NCBI GenBank assembly: GCA_017405265.1
Contig: JAFRAS010000007.1
Location: 3,524-67,523, forward strand
Length of the DNA stretch: 64,000 nt
Source of the DNA: Candidatus Saccharimonadota bacterium
Lineage (GTDB): Bacteria > Patescibacteriota > Saccharimonadia > Saccharimonadales > Saccharimonadaceae
Direction of reading: 5' to 3'
Shown: positions 426 to 50,392 of the stretch, piece by piece
Position numbering within the stretch: position 1 is the stretch's first letter
Layout of the letters: the number at the start of each line of letters is the position of its first letter
Program-made: the position numbers and the translations under genes
The notes under the pieces: generated by a model
What the model was told of the DNA's origin: nothing
The model's input: the letters and a program-made list of their open reading frames with translations, nothing else
Databases searched by the model: none

Positions 426-1400
426 ATGTCTGCCGCCATGCTCAAAAAAACTCGCCTGACCGTCCTCCTCTCTTTGAATGCAGCCGCGATTTTGATTGCC
501 GGCATCCTGATTGCCTCCGCCCTCGGCTTTAATATCGGTGAATTCCACGTCGTCGCCTCTCGCACCGACGAAGTTGACACCGAACTCATCGCCGACGGCG
601 CCGATCTCGAAGCCGCCTCGACTGACAAGTCCGCCATCCACGATTCCACTGGCAGCGGTGGCATTATCTCTTCTGACTTTTCCATTTCCTCCGGCACCCG
701 CACCTGGATTTCGACCGACCCCGTGAATTTCGGCGAACTCTGGAATGAAAATGAAGTGACGATTTACCGCTCCGCCGACATTGACCTCTGTGCCGGTGGC
801 GGTCTTTCGGGTCTTGGCGCCATGTATTGGCAATCGAGCAATCATTCCGTCATCTCGAATTTCTACTCCGGCGCCCGCACCTGGCTCGGCTTTAATAACG
901 AAACTTGTCGTTTCCCGATTGTCGAAAACGTAGGTGACACCGTCGTGACCGCCGGCACTTACGACGGTTCTCGTCGCGATTCCATCACCGTCCACGTCAT
1001 CGACATCCCCGTCGAGGAGTGGAAACGCGAGATTCTGACCCTGACGAACCAAATCCGCGTCGAAAACGGCCTCCCGACTCTCGTCTGGGGGACGACTTGC
1101 GAAAAAGCCGCCCAACTCCGCGCCGAAGAAATTGTCTCTGTCTATTCCCATACTCGCCCCGACGGCTCGCCCTGGTCCACTGTTTGCGAAATCCCCTCGA
1201 CCGGCGGCTCCTCCGGCGAGAACTTAATGGCAGGAAACGCCGCCCCCTCCCCCGAAACCGTCGTCGCCGCCTGGGTGAACTCGAAAGACCACCTCGAGAA
1301 TATCTTAAACCCCGACTTCACCCACCTCGCCGTCGGCCTCGTCTTCGACCCTTCCTCGAAACTGAAGATTTATTGGTCTGAGTTCTTCTCAACTTACTAA
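426..1400 (+). CDS. Membrane-anchored CAP/SCP-domain protein
   Basis: N-terminal TM helix; C-terminal CAP motifs LTNQIRVENGL, SHTRPDG, GENL, WVNSKDHLENIL. Confidence 0.85.
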   Translation: MSAAMLKKTRLTVLLSLNAAAILIAGILIASALGFNIGEFHVVASRTDEVDTELIADGADLEAASTDKSAIHDSTGSGGIISSDFSISSGTRTWISTDPVNFGELWNENEVTIYRSADIDLCAGGGLSGLGAMYWQSSNHSVISNFYSGARTWLGFNNETCRFPIVENVGDTVVTAGTYDGSRRDSITVHVIDIPVEEWKREILTLTNQIRVENGLPTLVWGTTCEKAAQLRAEEIVSVYSHTRPDGSPWSTVCEIPSTGGSSGENLMAGNAAPSPETVVAAWVNSKDHLENILNPDFTHLAVGLVFDPSSKLKIYWSEFFSTY

Positions 1401-1422
1401 TTTTATGATATAATGTGCCTAT

Positions 1423-1498
1423 GGGGTAGTAGCTCATCTGGTAGAGCGCAGCATTCGCATTGCTGAGGTGGGGAGTTCGAGTCTCCCCTACTCCACCA
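1423..1498 (+). tRNA. tRNA-Ala(CGC)
   Basis: Acceptor GGGGTAG/CTACTCC with G3:U70, anticodon arm CAGCA-TTCGCAT-TGCTG, TTCGA T-loop, encoded CCA; TGATATAAT upstream. Confidence 0.97.
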
Positions 1499-1507
1499 CA
1501 AACAACG

Positions 1508-1532
1508 GCGACGCTAACGCGTCGCGCTTTTT
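1508..1532 (+). terminator. Terminator-like hairpin after tRNA-Ala
   Basis: GCGACGC-TAAC-GCGTCGC followed by a T-run; same stem follows tRNA-Glu. Confidence 0.7.
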
Positions 1533-1578
1533 GTTTTCAACAAAAAGCGTGTTTCGCGAAGCGAAACACCGTTGTTTG

Positions 1579-1721
1579 TGGAAGGGCGCGAAGCGATACT
1601 TCTTTTCCTTCGGAAAAGAAGTTAGAGCGAGCGACCTACCACAAAATACTCAATTTTTTGGAAGGGCGCGAAGCGATACTTCTTTTCCTTCGGAAAAGAA
1701 GTTAGAGCGAGCGACCTACCA
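1579..1721. repeat. Two identical 63-bp structured direct repeats (1579-1641, 1659-1721), family D
   Basis: TGGAAGGGCGCGAAGCGATAC-hairpin-GTTAGAGCGAGCGACCTACCA, period 80 bp; third copy at 53583. Confidence 0.9.
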
Positions 1722-1729
1722 TGAAAAGG

Positions 1730-1764
1730 GAAGCTCCGAGAAAAAGTAGTTTTCTCTGCGCTTC
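1730..1764. repeat. Internally deleted remnant of palindrome family A
   Basis: GAAGCTCCGAGAAAA joined to AGTAGTTTTCTCTGCGCTTC matches the two ends of the 50227-50392 element. Confidence 0.7.
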
Positions 1765-1781
1765 TTTAAAAGGTCTCGCAA

Positions 1782-1947
1782 GGGAAGTTCTTAAAACTCG
1801 CTTTTCTGCAGTTATAAAAAATAATCATTTAAAAATTTCTTGAAACAGGTCGAGTACGTGATAGTCCACGGCGCAGACCTGCCTTGAAAGAAATTTTTAA
1901 ATAGATTATTTTTTATAGGCAAAGAAAAAGAGTTTTAAGAACTTCCC
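1782..1947. repeat. 166-bp imperfect palindrome, family A (MITE/REP-like)
   Basis: GGGAAGTTCTTAAAACTC...GAGTTTTAAGAACTTCCC with pairing continuing to the centre. Confidence 0.9.
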
Positions 1948-1960
1948 AAACAACACCTTA

Positions 1961-1989
1961 TTGACAAAATCTCTACTTTGTGCTATAAT
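1961..1989 (+). promoter_or_regulatory. Consensus sigma70 promoter
   Basis: TTGACA-17bp-TATAAT with extended TG. Confidence 0.85.
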
Positions 1990-2039
1990 AGAGACATATA
2001 TTGGTTCCCGAGTGAGCCCGCACCTTAAAGGAGGAAAAT

Positions 2040-2945: not shown

Positions 2946-3596
2946 ATGAAAAAAGCCCTACTTGTTATAAGCATAATAATTTTTACGCTTACCGTTATAG
3001 CTTTAATCGCGAGCGCTCCGAAGCCAGACGAAAACTTTTCGGCCGACTCGATTATCGAAGCGTCGAGTAGAACCGGCAATCTCCCCGAAAAAATCATCGG
3101 CGACCCCGACCTTGCCACATTGATAATCTACGAATATGCCGATTATGCCTGCCCGCACTGCTCGGATTTCAACGACGAGATGAACGCTCTCCTTGAAAAA
3201 TATGGCGACCGCCTCGCCTTAGTTTTTCGTAGCTACGACCTCGGACTTTCCAAAAATAGCCAATCTGCCTCCCGCGCCGCCACCGCCGCCGAGATTCAAG
3301 GCTGTTGGAAGGAATATAAAGACCTGCTTTTCAAACACCAATCTGAATGGGTTTACGCCGACAATAAAACCCTGAACGAATTATTACTTAAATATTTCGA
3401 GCGTGCCTCGAGCGGCGCCGGCGACACCGAAAAATTCAAGAATGACATGAAAAGCTCCGAGGTGAAAAAGCGTGTAGATTTTGAACAAAAACTAGGTAAA
3501 AGCATAAACCTCAAAGGCACCCCCACCTTCCGCGCCAACGGCGAAGACTTGCCCCTCGAAACCCTCTCCTCTACCATCGAAAGCCTAATGAAATAG
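2946..3596 (+). CDS. DsbA-family thiol-disulfide oxidoreductase
   Basis: EYADYACPHC and GTPTF cis-Pro loop; N-terminal anchor. Confidence 0.92.
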   Translation: MKKALLVISIIIFTLTVIALIASAPKPDENFSADSIIEASSRTGNLPEKIIGDPDLATLIIYEYADYACPHCSDFNDEMNALLEKYGDRLALVFRSYDLGLSKNSQSASRAATAAEIQGCWKEYKDLLFKHQSEWVYADNKTLNELLLKYFERASSGAGDTEKFKNDMKSSEVKKRVDFEQKLGKSINLKGTPTFRANGEDLPLETLSSTIESLMK

Positions 3597-26644: not shown

Positions 26645-26953
26645 ATGCGTGAAGCCATGACCGCGAATATCAACGTTCGCACCACCCCAAAGCTCAAGGC
26701 AAAAAGCCAGAAACTTTTTGAGGATTGGGGGCTCGACACCTCCACGGCCATCAATATGTTTTTAAAAGATTGTGTCCGCGAAAAATCCTTGCCTTTCCGC
26801 TTCACTCGGGAAGAAGCTCGTTATGTTCCGAACGCTGAGACGGTCGAGGCACTTAAAGAAGCCAAAGAAATTTCGAAAGACAAAAACGCGGTGGGCTATA
26901 CTAATATGAAAGATTTTGTGAGTGCCCTCCATGACGAAGTTAAAAAAGCCTAA
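26645..26953 (+). CDS. dinJ: RelB/DinJ antitoxin
   Basis: INVR..LK....F...GLD.STAINMFL.......LPF, PNAETVEALKE. Confidence 0.9.
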   Translation: MREAMTANINVRTTPKLKAKSQKLFEDWGLDTSTAINMFLKDCVREKSLPFRFTREEARYVPNAETVEALKEAKEISKDKNAVGYTNMKDFVSALHDEVKKA

Positions 26954-27254
26954 TTTTTTCGACGCATCAGACCTAAAATACGAAATTAGACCTACAAAGC
27001 AATTCATAAAGGACTATAAAAAGGCTCTCCTCCGCGGAAAGAAAGAGAAGAAAATACTCGATGTAATTTTTACACTCGCCAAGGGCGAAAAATTACCTCT
27101 GAAATTTCGCGAGCATAAGCTCGCTGGTGAGTATAGCGATTATTTCGAGTGTCACATCGAACCGGACTGGCTGTTGGTCTATTATCTCGAGGAAAATCAC
27201 CTCGTTCTCGTGCTCGCCCGCACCGGCTCCCATTCCGACCTTTTTGGAAAGTAG
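26922..27254 (+). CDS. yafQ: YafQ-family mRNA interferase toxin (start could be ATG 26931)
   Basis: F.KDYK, EHKLAG, ECHIEPDWLLVY, RTGSHSDLF. Confidence 0.93.
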   Translation: MPSMTKLKKPNFFDASDLKYEIRPTKQFIKDYKKALLRGKKEKKILDVIFTLAKGEKLPLKFREHKLAGEYSDYFECHIEPDWLLVYYLEENHLVLVLARTGSHSDLFGK

Positions 27255-27287
27255 CTCGACTTTTCCCTGCATTTGGAGTATAATAGA

Positions 27288-27339
27288 TATATTCGGGAAT
27301 ACCCGCACCGCCCTGGTCAAAAGACCAGGGAATACTTTT
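27288..27339 (+). ncRNA. Candidate three-way-junction small RNA, copy 1
   Basis: TCGACT-17bp-TATAAT then TATATTC-GGG AATA CCC-GCACCG-CCCTGGTC AAAA GACCAGGG-AATAC-TTTT. Confidence 0.65.
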
Positions 27340-27401
27340 CCACAGCCAACGATTTTTAATTTCCTCTCCACATTTCATTCTGCTCATGTTATAATCATTT
27401 C

Positions 27402-30400: not shown

Positions 30401-31169
30401 GCCGACCGCTAATCAATTTGCTGATTATATCAGAACAAACGGCGGGGTCATGAATCGCGAAGTTGCTCGCGAAATTATGACTGGTGCCAGCGCCGGAACC
30501 TATAAGGCCGCCACCGGCACCCTCTATGAATATGCCTCCCAAATTCATACCAATGACACAGATCATCAAGTTTTCGATGGTGGTGGCAATATTAGAGACT
30601 ACGCCGACTGGGCCACTGCCGATCTCGTCGACGCGCATACTGGCGAACACTATTCGAACATTTCTCTTGCTGTCGAACATAATATGTCGAAGCCCGAGGA
30701 GCTCGCTGGCCAAGGCCGCAGTACTTTGAGCGAAGTCGAGCACGCCAAAAATGGCGTCGCCCACTCCTATACTTCCGGGGCTAACACTAGAAATGTCAAC
30801 TTTACTGCTGGTCGCACCTTTACCGCCGCTGGCAACCAAGCCCTCGAGCGCAACGCCGCCGGCGCCCTCGCTCTCGAAAACGTCGACAACACGAAAGAGC
30901 AAAACTACCGCAATATCGCCAACGGTCGCGGCACCATCGCGCAAGAAAACGCCGCCGCTGCCGCCGATATTGCTGCCGCTCGTCAATCCGACACTCTCGC
31001 CGGCACTTATCGCGACGGCGCTGGTAACATCCGCCGCGTCGTTCGCAACGCCGACGGCACTTATAGCCTCTTCGACGGTAGTAATGTTCAGGTCCACATC
31101 CGTCGTGGTCCTACCAACGCCAACGATGTCGACAGTAATCTTCGTGGCGGTGGCTATACTAAAATCTAG
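27402..31169 (+). CDS. Large polytopic membrane protein with VirB6/TrbL-like core
   Basis: Signal peptide, Cys-containing extracellular region, TM block with LPKL..LLINLSF.ICQLAVDLSN and SPLAFAC..FPGT. Confidence 0.7.
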   Translation: MMVKKKHGFSFKTKFLLSLFAVFLSVSVFVMNNRSVFAAGEGDCYASGGTWRDGTCDCGSGRTVGADGRCVPSDTIIDQIQGGSTNAIYKKSLFLGAYECYTNHAKIGNEFTAGSTRFGSNTFFNDNDIIYLPTGFENSLHSSREHCEYVMSGFHGNDDNNSRGNDYSTGLLEEFNKSRWKPNAIGEEGMQNLGLIEQAGGNNKKYVLKFQLTPAGGQTTEYTITYENHSATITPAAEGENLCNTTSGPWGSADPFAICTAGGYRVGWAHIGNNWATFDMHNRFALVDSSNSVLDAQGTGGWLYICNDKTHFSREISGGIISMDCGGTYETTINYDNNAPTLTAMTYVEESSEGSGKYKFSDPPAGSFWNMVKSITGKNVAENISQFYLTPDEQKTLYMTYINGVIHNSDLKFSSTCYAQGSSEFQAARTNGNYMAINNGQWCLLEGMDSLNQNSAWDNMKLNGSGSKVISREGKFAVVTAQDASKNGTKLGATQDSYIDALREVIRLLMALDEFIDAGQEIPTVTPTSSSEDSVCLKENAAGAVSWAICPTMEGLAEGSDGIYALIKDYLRIDADLLKIGDGHDGTYQVWQYFVGFANVFAVIFLLFIVFSQVTGYGINNYGVKKALPKLLVMVLLINLSFLICQLAVDLSNVIGQSLSLLLNSVAKTAIGNVSNLTVSAAGVGEVNWIQGFAIGGATMGSLVPTIITVLMSTTGWIAVILIIFAVLAMFIAVLAVFVMLAAREILVVALVALSPLAFACNIFPGTEKIFKRWFDIFKGMLLIFPIASGLYGVGCIIQAIIISSQGGHLQVWESIIAALAPMAPFVALPGLLRSSLNAVGNIGTTIQGLGNRARGGLNNASRAVQNSERGREAQRQRQMNRDERIVNRLRQREANGATLSDYNRRRLNRHAASFNAATREDIAAQNANPELLVAGTAAYEAMAAGVQNKERESRIGDRVMLLQNNNPDNNTLFTMYQDAINSGDNEQAVAIARYAGRSKPTANQFADYIRTNGGVMNREVAREIMTGASAGTYKAATGTLYEYASQIHTNDTDHQVFDGGGNIRDYADWATADLVDAHTGEHYSNISLAVEHNMSKPEELAGQGRSTLSEVEHAKNGVAHSYTSGANTRNVNFTAGRTFTAAGNQALERNAAGALALENVDNTKEQNYRNIANGRGTIAQENAAAAADIAAARQSDTLAGTYRDGAGNIRRVVRNADGTYSLFDGSNVQVHIRRGPTNANDVDSNLRGGGYTKI

Positions 31170-46814: not shown

Positions 46815-47942
46815 ATGGACAAATATGACTTCCTCATCATCGGCTCTGGCATCTTCGGTGCTACTGTTGCCGAGCGCCTGAAATCCGCCGGAAAAAAAGT
46901 TCTCGTCATCGACCGCCGCGCCCACCTCGCCGGCAATATTTACTCCTATATGGACGAAAAAACCGGCATCGAAGTCCACGCCTACGGCTCCCATATTTTC
47001 CACACTGAATCTGACGAAGTCTGGGATTATATCACTAAGTTCGCCGATTTTAACGATTACGTCCACACTGTCCACACTCGCCACGACGGCAAGCTCTACC
47101 CCATGCCCATCAACCTCGACACAATTAATCTGTTCTATGGCACGAATTTATCCGCCGCCGAGGCCGAAAAATTCATTAAACAAAAAGCCGAAAAAATCGA
47201 CCGCCCGAAAAACTTCGCCGAACAAGCCAAATCTCTCGTCGGCACCGAACTTTTCGAAGCTTTCTTAAAAAACTACACCGAAAAACAGTGGCGCGACTCC
47301 GCCGAACATCTCCCCGCCGCCCTCCTCTCGCGCATCCCCGTCCGCTTCTCCTCCGACGCCCGCTATTTTATGTCCGCGAAGCATCAGGGCATCCCGAAAA
47401 ACGGCTACACGAACCTTATCAAAAACCTCTTAAAAGGCATTGATTATAAATTAAATACCAGCTTCAAAGACCTCGAGCCGAGCCTAAAAAACCAAACTAT
47501 AATCTACACCGGCGCCATCGACGAGCTCATGGACTACGAATTTGGCGCTCTCCCCTATCGCTCCCTCCGTTTCGAAACCGAAACCGTCGAAAACTCGGCA
47601 CAAAAAGAAGCCGTGATTAACGAGGCCGACGCCGACGTCCCCTACACCCGCACCCACTCTTATAAATACTACCAAATCCACTCCCCCGAAATCATCAACC
47701 AACCTCTCTCGGTCATCTCCCGCGAATACCCCGCCGACTTCAAAATCGGTGCCGAAGCCTACTACCCTGTAAACAACGAAGATTCCGAGGCTCTGTATCA
47801 AAAATATTTGAGTGCCGCGCGCGAAAAATACCCGAACATGTACTTCGGCGGCCGTCTTGGCGCCTTCCGCTACTGGGACATGGACATCGCCGTAAAAAAC
47901 GCCCTTGACCTGTCAGAAAAAATTTTAAAGGAGACGAAATGA
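46815..47942 (+). CDS. glf: UDP-galactopyranose mutase
   Basis: GSGIFG, HAYGSHIFHT, YTEKQW, LPYRSL, YYPVN, GRLG. Confidence 0.95.
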   Translation: MDKYDFLIIGSGIFGATVAERLKSAGKKVLVIDRRAHLAGNIYSYMDEKTGIEVHAYGSHIFHTESDEVWDYITKFADFNDYVHTVHTRHDGKLYPMPINLDTINLFYGTNLSAAEAEKFIKQKAEKIDRPKNFAEQAKSLVGTELFEAFLKNYTEKQWRDSAEHLPAALLSRIPVRFSSDARYFMSAKHQGIPKNGYTNLIKNLLKGIDYKLNTSFKDLEPSLKNQTIIYTGAIDELMDYEFGALPYRSLRFETETVENSAQKEAVINEADADVPYTRTHSYKYYQIHSPEIINQPLSVISREYPADFKIGAEAYYPVNNEDSEALYQKYLSAAREKYPNMYFGGRLGAFRYWDMDIAVKNALDLSEKILKETK

Positions 47943-48964
47943 ATATCCTCTTGACCGGCGGCACCGGCTATATCGGTTCCCACGCCGCCGTCGAACTTTT
48001 GAACCTCAGCCACGACCTTACTCTGCTCGACAATCTGAGCAATAGTAAGCCAACTGTCGTCGAAAAAATCGCCGAAATCACCAAAAAATCCCCCGAATTT
48101 ATAAAAATCGACCTGCTCGACGAGCCGAGCCTTAATGATTTTTTCCAAAATCACTCTTTCGACCTCGTCATCCACTTCGCCGGCAAAAAGGCCGTCGGTG
48201 AATCCGTCGAAAAACCGCTCGAATACTACGAAAACAACGTAAAAGGCTCGATTAACCTCTTCAAAGCCATGTCGAGACACGGCATAAAGAAGCTCATTTT
48301 TTCCTCCTCTGCCACCGTTTATGGCATGCGTGATGTCGAAAAATTCACTGAAGACATGGAAACCGGCATGAATATCAGCTCCCCCTACGGCCGCTCGAAA
48401 TTCATGATTGAAGAAATTTTGAAAGACCTCGCCGCCTCCGACCCGGACTGGCAAATTTCACTCCTGAGATATTTTAACCCAATAGGGAACCATCCCTCCG
48501 GTCTCATCGGCGAAGACCCGAACGGCACCCCGAATAACTTAATGCCGATTATTATGAAAGTCGCAAAGGGCGAAATCCCCGAGCTGAAGATTTATGGCAC
48601 CGATTACGACACCGAAGATGGCACCTGTCTTCGCGATTATATCCACGTCGTCGACCTTGCGAAAGGCCACGTCGCCGCGATGAACTACCTCTCGCCTGGC
48701 GTCTCGATTTATAACCTCGGCTCCGGCGTCGGCACCTCGGTGAAAGAAATGGTCGAGGCTTTCGAATTCGCCTCGGGAAAACCTCTCCCCCACTCTTTCG
48801 CTCCCCGTCGCCCCGGCGACATCGCCCGCATCATTGCCGACCCGGCGAAAGCCAACCGTGAGCTAAACTGGCGTACTACCCTCTCAGTCAAAGACGCCAT
48901 GAAAGACACGCTTACTTTTCTCAAAAAATCCCCCGCGAGCAGGGAGAACAACTATATACCCTAA
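47939..48964 (+). CDS. galE: UDP-glucose 4-epimerase
   Basis: GGTGYIGSH, KAVGESV, RYFNPIG, RDYIHVVDLA. Confidence 0.96.
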   Translation: MNILLTGGTGYIGSHAAVELLNLSHDLTLLDNLSNSKPTVVEKIAEITKKSPEFIKIDLLDEPSLNDFFQNHSFDLVIHFAGKKAVGESVEKPLEYYENNVKGSINLFKAMSRHGIKKLIFSSSATVYGMRDVEKFTEDMETGMNISSPYGRSKFMIEEILKDLAASDPDWQISLLRYFNPIGNHPSGLIGEDPNGTPNNLMPIIMKVAKGEIPELKIYGTDYDTEDGTCLRDYIHVVDLAKGHVAAMNYLSPGVSIYNLGSGVGTSVKEMVEAFEFASGKPLPHSFAPRRPGDIARIIADPAKANRELNWRTTLSVKDAMKDTLTFLKKSPASRENNYIP

Positions 48965-49011
48965 TTATACCACACTTTCCATTTTTTGTCAACTGATGCT
49001 ATAATTTTCTT

Positions 49012-49713: not shown

Positions 49714-49737
49714 CGTTTTTATGGTATAATAACAGAT

Positions 49738-50127
49738 ATGGAAGAAAAACGCTTCAGGGAGTGGATTGAATTAAAGGAAAGAATTCATTTTAGCAATTCC
49801 TTGCCAAAAATCAAAGAGGACGACATTTGGTGGTGTAGCTTTGGCGAGAATGTCGGCATAGAAATTAACGGTAAAAATAAGCTCTTTTCTCGCCCAGTTT
49901 TCATCTACAAAAAGCTCAGCCGCTTCGGTTTTATAGGCATACCACTGACTTCGCAGGACAAGACCGGCTCGTGGTATGTGAAATTCGATTTCCAAAACAA
50001 GCCCCAAACCGCCGTATTGTCCCAGATTAGAACCTTCAGTGTTTCTCGGCTTTCGAGCCGCATGGGGAGACTAGACAAAAGCGACGCAAGGAAGATTAGG
50101 AACGCAGCCAGAGCATTTTTTAGCTAA
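49738..50127 (+). CDS. Orphan PemK/MazF-family toxin
   Basis: DIWWCSFGENVGIEINGK..FSRPV..IPLTS..QIRT. Confidence 0.88.
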   Translation: MEEKRFREWIELKERIHFSNSLPKIKEDDIWWCSFGENVGIEINGKNKLFSRPVFIYKKLSRFGFIGIPLTSQDKTGSWYVKFDFQNKPQTAVLSQIRTFSVSRLSSRMGRLDKSDARKIRNAARAFFS

Positions 50128-50176
50128 AAAATATTCCCAACTCTTTCGAGTTGGGCCGCGGCTATTGCCGAATATA
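50126..50176 (-). ncRNA. Candidate three-way-junction small RNA, copy 2, convergent with pemK
   Basis: Minus-strand TTGACA(50210)-17bp-TATAAT then TATATTC-GGC AATA GCC-GCGG-CCCAACTC GAAA GAGTTGGG-AATA-TTTTT. Confidence 0.7.
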
Positions 50177-50226
50177 CCCTCATTATATCAAACATTAAGC
50201 GCTTTGTCAATAGTCAAGGCCAAAAG

Positions 50227-50392
50227 AAGCTCCGAGAAAACTGCTTTTTCGCTGTTATGAAAAAACTCTCTATTTTGAAATTTTTGCGAAACAAGCCGAG
50301 TACGCGACAGTCCGCGACGCAGGCTTGACTTGAGCAAAAATTTCAAAGAGAGATTTTTTCATAGGCGAGAAAAAGTAGTTTTCTCGGAGCTT
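50227..50392. repeat. 166-bp imperfect palindrome, family A
   Basis: AAGCTCCGAGAAAAC...GTTTTCTCGGAGCTT; core alignable to 1782-1947. Confidence 0.9.

Follow-up and report, generated by a model that had tools for sequence, protein, structure and literature searches.

How is a MazF-type toxin restrained when no protein antitoxin is encoded beside it? The question is raised by a PemK/MazF-family endoribonuclease gene (129 amino acids (aa); 49738..50127, plus strand) in a 64,000-nucleotide (nt) stretch of a Candidatus Saccharimonadota genome (assembly GCA_017405265.1, contig JAFRAS010000007.1; the whole stretch is hereafter called the window), which is met head-on by a small RNA (sRNA) gene of ~48–50 nt on the minus strand (50126..50175). 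The locus is best explained as a two-gene toxin-antitoxin cassette of ~0.5 kb, in which a weakly promoted, apparently leaderless MazF/PemK gene converges with an sRNA transcribed from a consensus promoter.

The toxin is a MazF by profile and by fold. It matched PF02452 at 36.4 bits against a Pfam cut-off of 23.1 (39.7 bits for a paralogue on contig 4), and its AlphaFold2 (AF2) model (pLDDT 84.8) consists of a MazF barrel and a C-terminal helix, with an extra N-terminal helix (residues 3–19) placed before the barrel. The top 50 Foldseek matches in the PDB were all MazF, PemK, MoxT or YdcE (probability 1.00; TM 0.65–0.76), and the toxin profile matched Bacillus subtilis MazF (4MDX; E 1e-7) in an alignment that begins only at residue 22. 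Across the PemK subfamily R52, P53, P69, L70, Q96 and R104 are invariant, as is a T/S after P69-L70. The RPV and PL(T/S) motifs align with GVRPVLV and AAITAQ of 4MDX, and the Q-x-R motif is also kept. We take the catalytic Arg of RPV and the Thr/Ser of PL(T/S) to be the equivalents of R25 and T48 in B. subtilis MazF; because the catalytic residues of the RPV, (T/S) and Q-x-R motifs are invariant, the window toxin looks active, judging by its sequence. The N-terminal helix (~20 residues) has no counterpart in solved MazFs. It is conserved in the subfamily, with W9 and K13 nearly invariant, and it co-occurs with the sRNA, also on plasmids of Campylobacterota. Among 1.84 billion representatives, 1954 protein clusters (50% identity) matched the toxin profile at E ≤ 1e-10, most of them over the full toxin length with the N-terminal part included. 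One database protein (P0015; 215 aa, 74% identical to the window PemK) has HTH_3 domains (PF01381/PF12844) fused ahead of PemK. This may be an artefact of gene calling; otherwise it is a rare variant that has a domain resembling a protein antitoxin.

The original prediction had described this toxin as an orphan, and that description was borne out. No antitoxin open reading frame (ORF) is adjacent to the window gene, and no conserved small ORF was found upstream across the loci, where the neighboring genes vary from one locus to the next (in the window, an acyltransferase gene lies upstream and a gene for a pilin-like protein downstream). MazE (PF04014) had no match anywhere in the genome (85.6% complete), no PADLOC defence model matched any of the three PemK paralogues that it encodes, and no toxin relatives were found in viral contigs. 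The toxin promoter (49722..49730, plus strand) is an extended -10 element, TGgTATAAT, with no good -35 element. Its -10 box ends 7 nt before the ATG, and the toxin mRNA is therefore predicted to be leaderless or nearly so. A -10 box 6–8 nt before the ATG is a layout common to many PemK homologues, and leaderless starts appear common in this genome, where many strong promoters run directly into an ATG.

The sRNA gene, in turn, has its own strong promoter on the minus strand (50182..50210), much as had been predicted: the -35 element TTGACA (50210–50205) and the -10 element TATAAT (50187–50182) are both perfect consensus hexamers, separated by a 17-nt spacer. Transcription is predicted to start at a conserved A (50175), 6 nt downstream of the -10 box. 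The gene is supported by its fold, by covariation and by two models, R1 (promoter plus RNA; 84.4 bits for the window sRNA) and R2 (30.3 bits). On the minus strand its sequence, AUAUUCGGCAAUAGCCGCGGCCCAACUCGAAAGAGUUGGGAAUAUUUUUU, divides into a 5-nt leader, AUAUU (50175–50171), a first hairpin, H1, with a 4-bp stem (CGGC-AAUA-GCCG; 50170–50159), a linker, CGG (50158–50156), a second hairpin, H2 (CCCAACUC-GAAA-GAGUUGGG; 50155–50136), and a tail, AAUAUUUUUU (50135–50126), whose U-run (50131–50126) overlaps the PemK stop codon (50125–50127) by 2 nt. G.U pairs in H2 and a mean folding advantage of 1.8 kcal/mol favor the promoter-driven strand, and the consensus promoter, at the same 6-nt distance from the leader, recurs at homologous loci.

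The three-way junction originally drawn for this RNA had to be given up. The minimum-energy fold consists of the two hairpins (-19.8 kcal/mol; folding z-score -3.6), versus -16.7 kcal/mol when the transcript from the predicted start is folded with the closing helix P1 (AUAUUC/GAAUAU). We rejected P1, which costs ~3 kcal/mol and is unconserved; the fold in which it had appeared included bases upstream of the start site. It is absent from the copy on contig 4 (tail CACAU), and RNAs with the leader ACAAAU, the majority class of the family, have no complementary AUUUGU in the tail. The second helix of that drawing, P2, is a real hairpin, redrawn here as the 4-bp H1, while the third, P3, is H2 itself and was confirmed together with the U-tail that reaches the PemK stop codon. 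No Rfam family matched over the sRNA: in Rfam 15, only tRNAs reached the gathering score in the window, nothing credible was returned at E ≤ 10 over the window copy or the orphan copy described below, and nothing was returned over the sRNA in 20 related loci, including that of the Campylobacter jejuni plasmid pVir.

Within this organism, the toxin is always accompanied by the sRNA. The genome (519 kb, 86% complete; the window stretch is present in DNA runs of animal gut metagenomes, and the names of its closest database homologues point to Saccharibacteria) contains exactly three PF02452 genes, and all three have an sRNA unit tail-to-tail with them. That of the window is copy A; copy C lies on contig 4, and copy D (H1 GAC-AACUA-GUC) on contig 5. 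A further sRNA, copy B (27256..27340, plus strand; R1 56.3 bits), is an orphan with no PemK beside it. Its promoter has the -35 element TCGACT (27256–27261) and the -10 element TATAAT (27279–27284), and its RNA runs from the leader and H1, which begin at 27289 (H1 CGGG-AAUA-CCCG, 27294–27305), through H2 (27311–27330) to a tail that ends at ~27339. The original prediction had placed a homologous structure at 27288, with compensatory changes in P2 and P3. This second copy is real, beginning one position later, and its H1 is indeed compensatory (GGC/GCC to GGG/CCC), but its H2 is a different one. Copy B follows the yafQ stop codon (27254) co-directionally and is antisense to nothing; its -35 element starts 2 nt past that codon, and directly upstream lies a type II relB/dinJ-yafQ pair (26645–27254; PF04221 + PF15738, Pfam and NCBIfam). 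Leader and H1 form one 18-nt pattern in copies A, B and C, identical in B and C (18/18 nt) and with compensatory changes in A. Despite this identity, the H2 of copy B is unrelated to that of copy C. A synteny test of cassette insertion among same-genus genomes found the flanking genes too diverged and not syntenic.

The pairing extends to relatives. In samples of the family and the order, ~35 of 36 PemK homologues have an sRNA unit, 28 of them at an R1 score of at least 30 bits and 7 weaker but recognisable. Across the phylum, 52 of the 401 Patescibacteria genomes sampled carry the toxin, in up to seven copies each, and the sRNA stands at the toxin 3' end on the opposite strand in 26/28 and 14/17 of the loci fetched (40/45 together). 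The reverse search gave the same picture: when R1 was run over 151 genomes of the family, 16 of the 17 best matches (at least 47 bits) abutted a PemK gene, and the 17th was orphan copy B. Most of the lower R1 matches were to generic promoters; among the others were one or two additional orphans and a unit that adjoins a toxin remnant. Locus L074 is another sRNA copy without PemK. At every locus examined, the annotation records only a solitary 'type II PemK/MazF toxin'.

The layout is as constant as the pairing. In ~75 loci the two genes converge and the sRNA 3' end lies on or inside the PemK 3' end, with a single exception. At this locus (L041, genome G490; 1495-1984, minus strand), the sRNA promoter, leader, H1, H2 and U-tail are followed by PemK in the same direction and then by pheT, which begins 14 nt after the PemK stop codon. 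This order of genes recalls type III, here with one RNA unit. At six loci (L038, L019, L023, L024, L026 and L028) the PemK frame has no stop codon at the usual place and runs on through the antisense sRNA gene and its promoter; the L038 frame (genome G363; 859-2001, minus strand) reaches 380 aa by extending into a GNAT acetyltransferase-like domain. Intact sRNA units also occur beside truncated PemK genes in L025 (genome G001; 1683-1786, minus strand) and L062 (genome G004), with toxin remnants of 52 and 41 aa, and the L025 RNA has a tandem duplication of H1 only (GGGAAUACCC twice). At another locus (L036), a LOOT RNA (RF03000, 71.3 bits; 3116-3241, minus strand) lies ~1.2 kb from the PemK-sRNA cassette.

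We then asked whether the RNA is conserved as a structure, using a structure-consistent alignment (A7) of 20 sRNAs from across the phylum, built from a geometry-matched seed (A6, then R2, then A7). H1 was paired in 100% of cells, with 3 of 4 pairs changing on both sides (UA/CG/GU/GC; CG/GC/AU), and H2 in 79% of cells, with 9 of 9 pairs changing on both sides. The covariation score was 0.689, versus 0.221 in shuffles (0/500 reached the observed value) and at most 0.18 when partners were slid, numbers that lean towards structure given that A7 is model-fitted and its sequences are related. The variety of H1 stems is also visible by eye (CGGC/GCCG, CGGG/CCCG, CGAC/GUCG, UCC/GGA, CCC/GGG, UGCC/GGCA, CGCC/GGCG, UGGC/GCCA and CUCUG/CAGAG).

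Conservation is not confined to paired positions. The leader follows the pattern A-[CU]-W-W-W-U, an invariant C stands directly after H1, a C(U)GA linker is frequent and the tail is A/U-rich. These unpaired leader and linker positions, together with the H1 sequence, are conserved across toxins of 30–68% identity, while H2 drifts; loci L006, L007 and L010, for instance, also have the H1 seen in copies A, B and C, even with toxin identities of no more than 47–68%, and H2 differs in each. The hairpins are capped by stable tetraloops (GAAA, GCAA, UUCG, AAUA), which do not resemble kissing loops. Of the Saccharibacteria copies, about one in four has no U-run after H2. In many copies from outside Saccharibacteria (L078, L097, L101, L103, L121, L012), H2 is flanked 5' by C(U)GA(U) and 3' by UGA(U)UAUUUU, whose GA dinucleotides might join in tandem sheared pairs, in a k-turn-like or GA motif that the window sRNA lacks. 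Together, the three paralogues out of three, the near-universal pairing among the homologues examined across the phylum, the covariation of H1 and H2 and the 16 of 17 best matches strongly support the original proposal that an independently transcribed small RNA partners this antitoxin-less PemK/MazF.

Two other elements lie close to the cassette. Directly upstream of the sRNA promoter is a long palindrome of 166 bp (50227–50392). Its contig depth in metagenomes is 4–10 times that of its flanks, which marks it as a multi-copy repeat; its weak Rfam match to SSRC8_2, at 22.7 bits where the cut-off is 72, lacks credibility. The palindrome may terminate the PemK transcript. The one RNA-labelled run contains the same contigs as a DNA run, and covers only the promoter and this palindrome, from a relative. 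A second mini-unit on the minus strand (48921–48992) has a perfect TTGACA-17-TATAAT promoter followed by AUAUAGUUGUUCUCCCUGCUCGCGGGGGAUUUUU (a hairpin and a U-tail). It is convergent with a GalE-like ORF (47939–48964), whose 3' end it overlaps, and its leader, AUAUAGUUGUU, is found again behind other promoters in the genome.

What, then, does the sRNA do? By whichever mechanism, it is very probably an antitoxin, because it is obligately linked to a toxin that looks active and has nothing else to inhibit it, because its promoter is strong and that of the toxin weak, because the cassette occurs on plasmids and in unrelated chromosomal contexts, and because there is a probable experimental precedent on pVir. 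The sRNA would take the role of the missing MazE-type protein antitoxin: kept abundant, it would neutralise the toxin, and a stop of RNA synthesis would release it. That the RNA is instead a partner of some other kind, whether substrate, cofactor or guide of a housekeeping or defence RNase, or simply a convergent promoter and terminator that sets the mRNA 3' end or insulates neighboring genes, seems unlikely to us. The mini-unit at 48921–48992, convergent with a gene that is not a toxin, and the orphan copies without PemK (copy B, L074) speak for such a role. Yet the conservation of H1 and the leader, and the covariation, far exceed what a terminator needs, the unit is specific to this MazF subfamily, the cassette is found, like toxin-antitoxin modules, on plasmids and in unrelated surroundings, and an active-looking MazF without another inhibitor would be expected to be lethal, from established MazF biology. 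We regard it as very improbable that the toxin restrains itself, with the N-terminal helix as a built-in, cis-acting antitoxin and the sRNA as an incidental neighbor. The helix is indeed conserved in the subfamily and absent from solved MazFs, and the N-terminal domain of EzeT provides a precedent for a tethered antitoxin (PMC4803016), but a near-obligate, covarying sRNA gene would be left unexplained; the helix is also short, and the Trp and Lys conserved in it seem to suit contact with a nucleic acid better than plugging of the groove.

Among antitoxin mechanisms our slight preference, held with a confidence a little short of even, is that the sRNA binds the toxin protein, in the manner of a type III antitoxin. 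The conserved single-stranded 5' leader (A-Y-W-W-W-U, from the start site) and H1 would fill the groove in which the MazF dimer takes up single-stranded RNA, mimicking a substrate or product while itself escaping cleavage. The N-terminal helix specific to the subfamily perhaps contributes to holding the RNA, and H2 with the U-tail would serve mainly as terminator and stabiliser. The competing explanation is cis-antisense control of a type I-like kind, which we consider possible but somewhat less probable: the PemK mRNA would read through the sRNA gene and so acquire a 3' untranslated region perfectly complementary to an abundant sRNA, and RNase III cleavage of the duplex would remove the 3' end and destabilise the toxin mRNA, or create non-stop mRNAs where the ORF enters the sRNA gene. 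Convergent antisense RNAs have precedents in txpA/RatA, bsrG/SR4 and fst (RNA I/RNA II of par). In keeping with cis-antisense, the layout is convergent in all but one of ~75 loci, the sense strand has no hairpin and U-run after the PemK stop codon, RNase III is encoded in the genome, and the PemK frame is open across the sRNA gene in several relatives. Against it, the overlap with the ORF is just 2 nt in the window, the toxin is a soluble 129-aa RNase rather than a membrane peptide, and antisense pairing alone leaves unexplained why leader, linker and H1 sequence are conserved across toxins of 30–40% identity while H2 drifts. This pattern of conservation also favors protein binding, as do the closed tetraloops (in place of kissing loops of 6–7 nt) and the N-terminal helix that travels with the sRNA. 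In L041, where the sRNA is upstream and co-directional, antisense pairing is impossible; orphan copy B, which matches copy C only in leader and H1, could not work in cis either. Pairing in trans between the sRNA 5' half and the toxin mRNA 5' region was likewise rejected, at -15.3 kcal/mol for cognate versus -16.1 kcal/mol for non-cognate pairs; this lack of cognate complementarity again favors binding to the protein.

Several observations nevertheless weigh against protein binding as the mechanism. An RNA that purely binds protein has no need of the near-invariant tail-to-tail arrangement, in which its 3' end falls on the stop codon, and copies without a U-run may read antisense into the toxin gene. 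The L041 arrangement is a singleton, with no close orthologue among the 401 phylum genomes. A at +7 after the -10 box is found in 77 of 114 strong sigma-70-like promoters of this genome, and T at +8 in 61 of 114, so the first two bases of the leader are a general start-site signature, although positions 3–6 are not. The module does not have the features that define type III membership. The probable published homologue of the sRNA, CjrA, is reportedly described as an 'antisense sRNA' and a type I antitoxin, in two papers that cite Shen et al. 2016. The fuller version of the protein-binding reading, namely a protein-level, single-unit antitoxin of a genuine MazF whose triphosphorylated leader is an active-site product mimic and whose H1 docks the N-terminal helix, is put forward with more doubt than protein binding as such. 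That the sRNA 5' end mimics a cleavage product, starting at the base after the scissile bond, is speculation that draws on the fixed start position.

MazF is a textbook type II toxin, and here a large MazF subfamily runs without MazE. Its RNA partner is in no RNA catalogue and its modules are annotated as solitary toxins, so that their description is consistently wrong. An RNA acting on the protein would carry the type III principle over to the MazF family in a minimal form of one RNA unit; an RNA acting as antisense would bring a soluble RNase toxin under type I control. Should the product-mimic reading be true, the RNA would stand outside both type I and classical type III, as a mechanistically new class of RNA antitoxin serving ~2000 protein clusters of MazF-like toxins. 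Either way, a cassette of ~0.5 kb with a 50-nt RNA is unusually tractable, and the sRNA is among the few conserved small RNAs known in the ultra-small bacteria of the candidate phyla radiation (CPR).

The closest known relatives of the cassette lie on plasmids. By tblastn, homologues annotated 'type II PemK/MazF toxin' were found on plasmids of Campylobacter, Helicobacter and Nitratiruptor. One of these is pVir0047 (30634-31038) on plasmid pVir of C. jejuni 81-176, 36% identical to the window PemK over 80% of the query (E 1e-11). It shares the N-terminal F-x-x-W...K helix, in pVir0047 with the motif F-D-E-W-N-x-x-K-K, and, like the window toxin, has no adjacent protein antitoxin. On the opposite strand, the 77-nt sRNA CJpv3 (31119 to 31043) is listed as 'Detected on Northern blot', with 16164 start-site reads versus 28 for pVir0047 (Dugar et al. 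2013, PMC3656092 supplements). Like the window sRNA, CJpv3 has its own TATAAT promoter, and it ends 5 nt after the toxin stop codon. It differs in its length and its three hairpins, and no R1 match was obtained on the pVir locus at E ≤ 0.05; the host belongs to another phylum, and the module is plasmid-borne whereas the window copy is chromosomal. Homologues on Nitratiruptor and Helicobacter suis plasmids show the same layout of promoter, leader, H1 and H2, and the Nitratiruptor sRNA, with an AUAAAU leader, H1 and H2, scores 19.9 bits with R1. The pVir0047/CJpv3 pair is probably the cjpT/cjrA system, labelled 'type I', of Shen et al. 2016 (Mol Microbiol 101:909). No description of the conserved RNA family, or of its spread in Patescibacteria, was found in Rfam or the available literature. 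The window cassette, proposed at the outset as a new system, is thus a member of the family of the pVir0047/CJpv3 module, a homologous pair already seen experimentally; it represents a barely described kind rather than a new one.

Measured against the established types, the cassette has the defining features of neither type II nor type III, and it may fit type I. With the type III systems (ToxIN, CptIN, TenpIN, AbiQ/antiQ), to which the original prediction had likened it, it shares the pairing of an endoribonuclease toxin with a small structured RNA that stands where a protein antitoxin would be, an RNA probably made in large excess, the mechanism favored here (an RNA in the RNase active site) and, in L041, the gene order of RNA, terminator and toxin. 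The likeness does not carry over to membership. By Pfam, the window toxin is only a PF02452 MazF and not of the ToxN/AbiQ, CptN or TenpN family; its RNA comes as one unit, with a promoter and a terminator to itself, instead of being processed from an array of tandem repeats, and is convergent and downstream rather than upstream (L041 is upstream but also a single unit); and there is no sign that the toxin processes the RNA.

The convergent type I systems, txpA/RatA and bsrG/SR4 of B. subtilis and the fst RNA I/RNA II pair of Enterococcus faecalis par, resemble the cassette in their tail-to-tail genes, in the strong RNA promoter that faces a weak toxin promoter and, if the toxin transcript reads through, in the complementarity of the RNA to its 3' region. 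Those type I toxins are small hydrophobic peptides, and their RNAs, of ~100–220 nt, overlap the toxin mRNA by tens to more than 100 nt; SymE and RalR are nuclease exceptions among type I toxins. In contrast, the window RNA is ~50 nt long with an ORF overlap of 2 nt and has unpaired residues conserved across very distant loci, and the window toxin is a soluble, 129-aa protein of the MazF fold. That fold, and the motif of catalytic Arg and Thr/Ser, are shared with the type II MazEF, PemIK and Kis-Kid systems, from which the cassette differs in having no mazE or pemI beside the toxin or elsewhere in the 86%-complete genome, and in a toxin gene that is monocistronic, apparently leaderless and extended by the N-terminal helix. 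The solitary MazF-mx of Myxococcus xanthus is similarly encoded without an adjacent mazE, and is neutralised by a distant protein, the transcription factor MrpC (PMC4803016), whereas in the present genome each toxin copy has its own RNA gene, dedicated to it and linked to it on the DNA.

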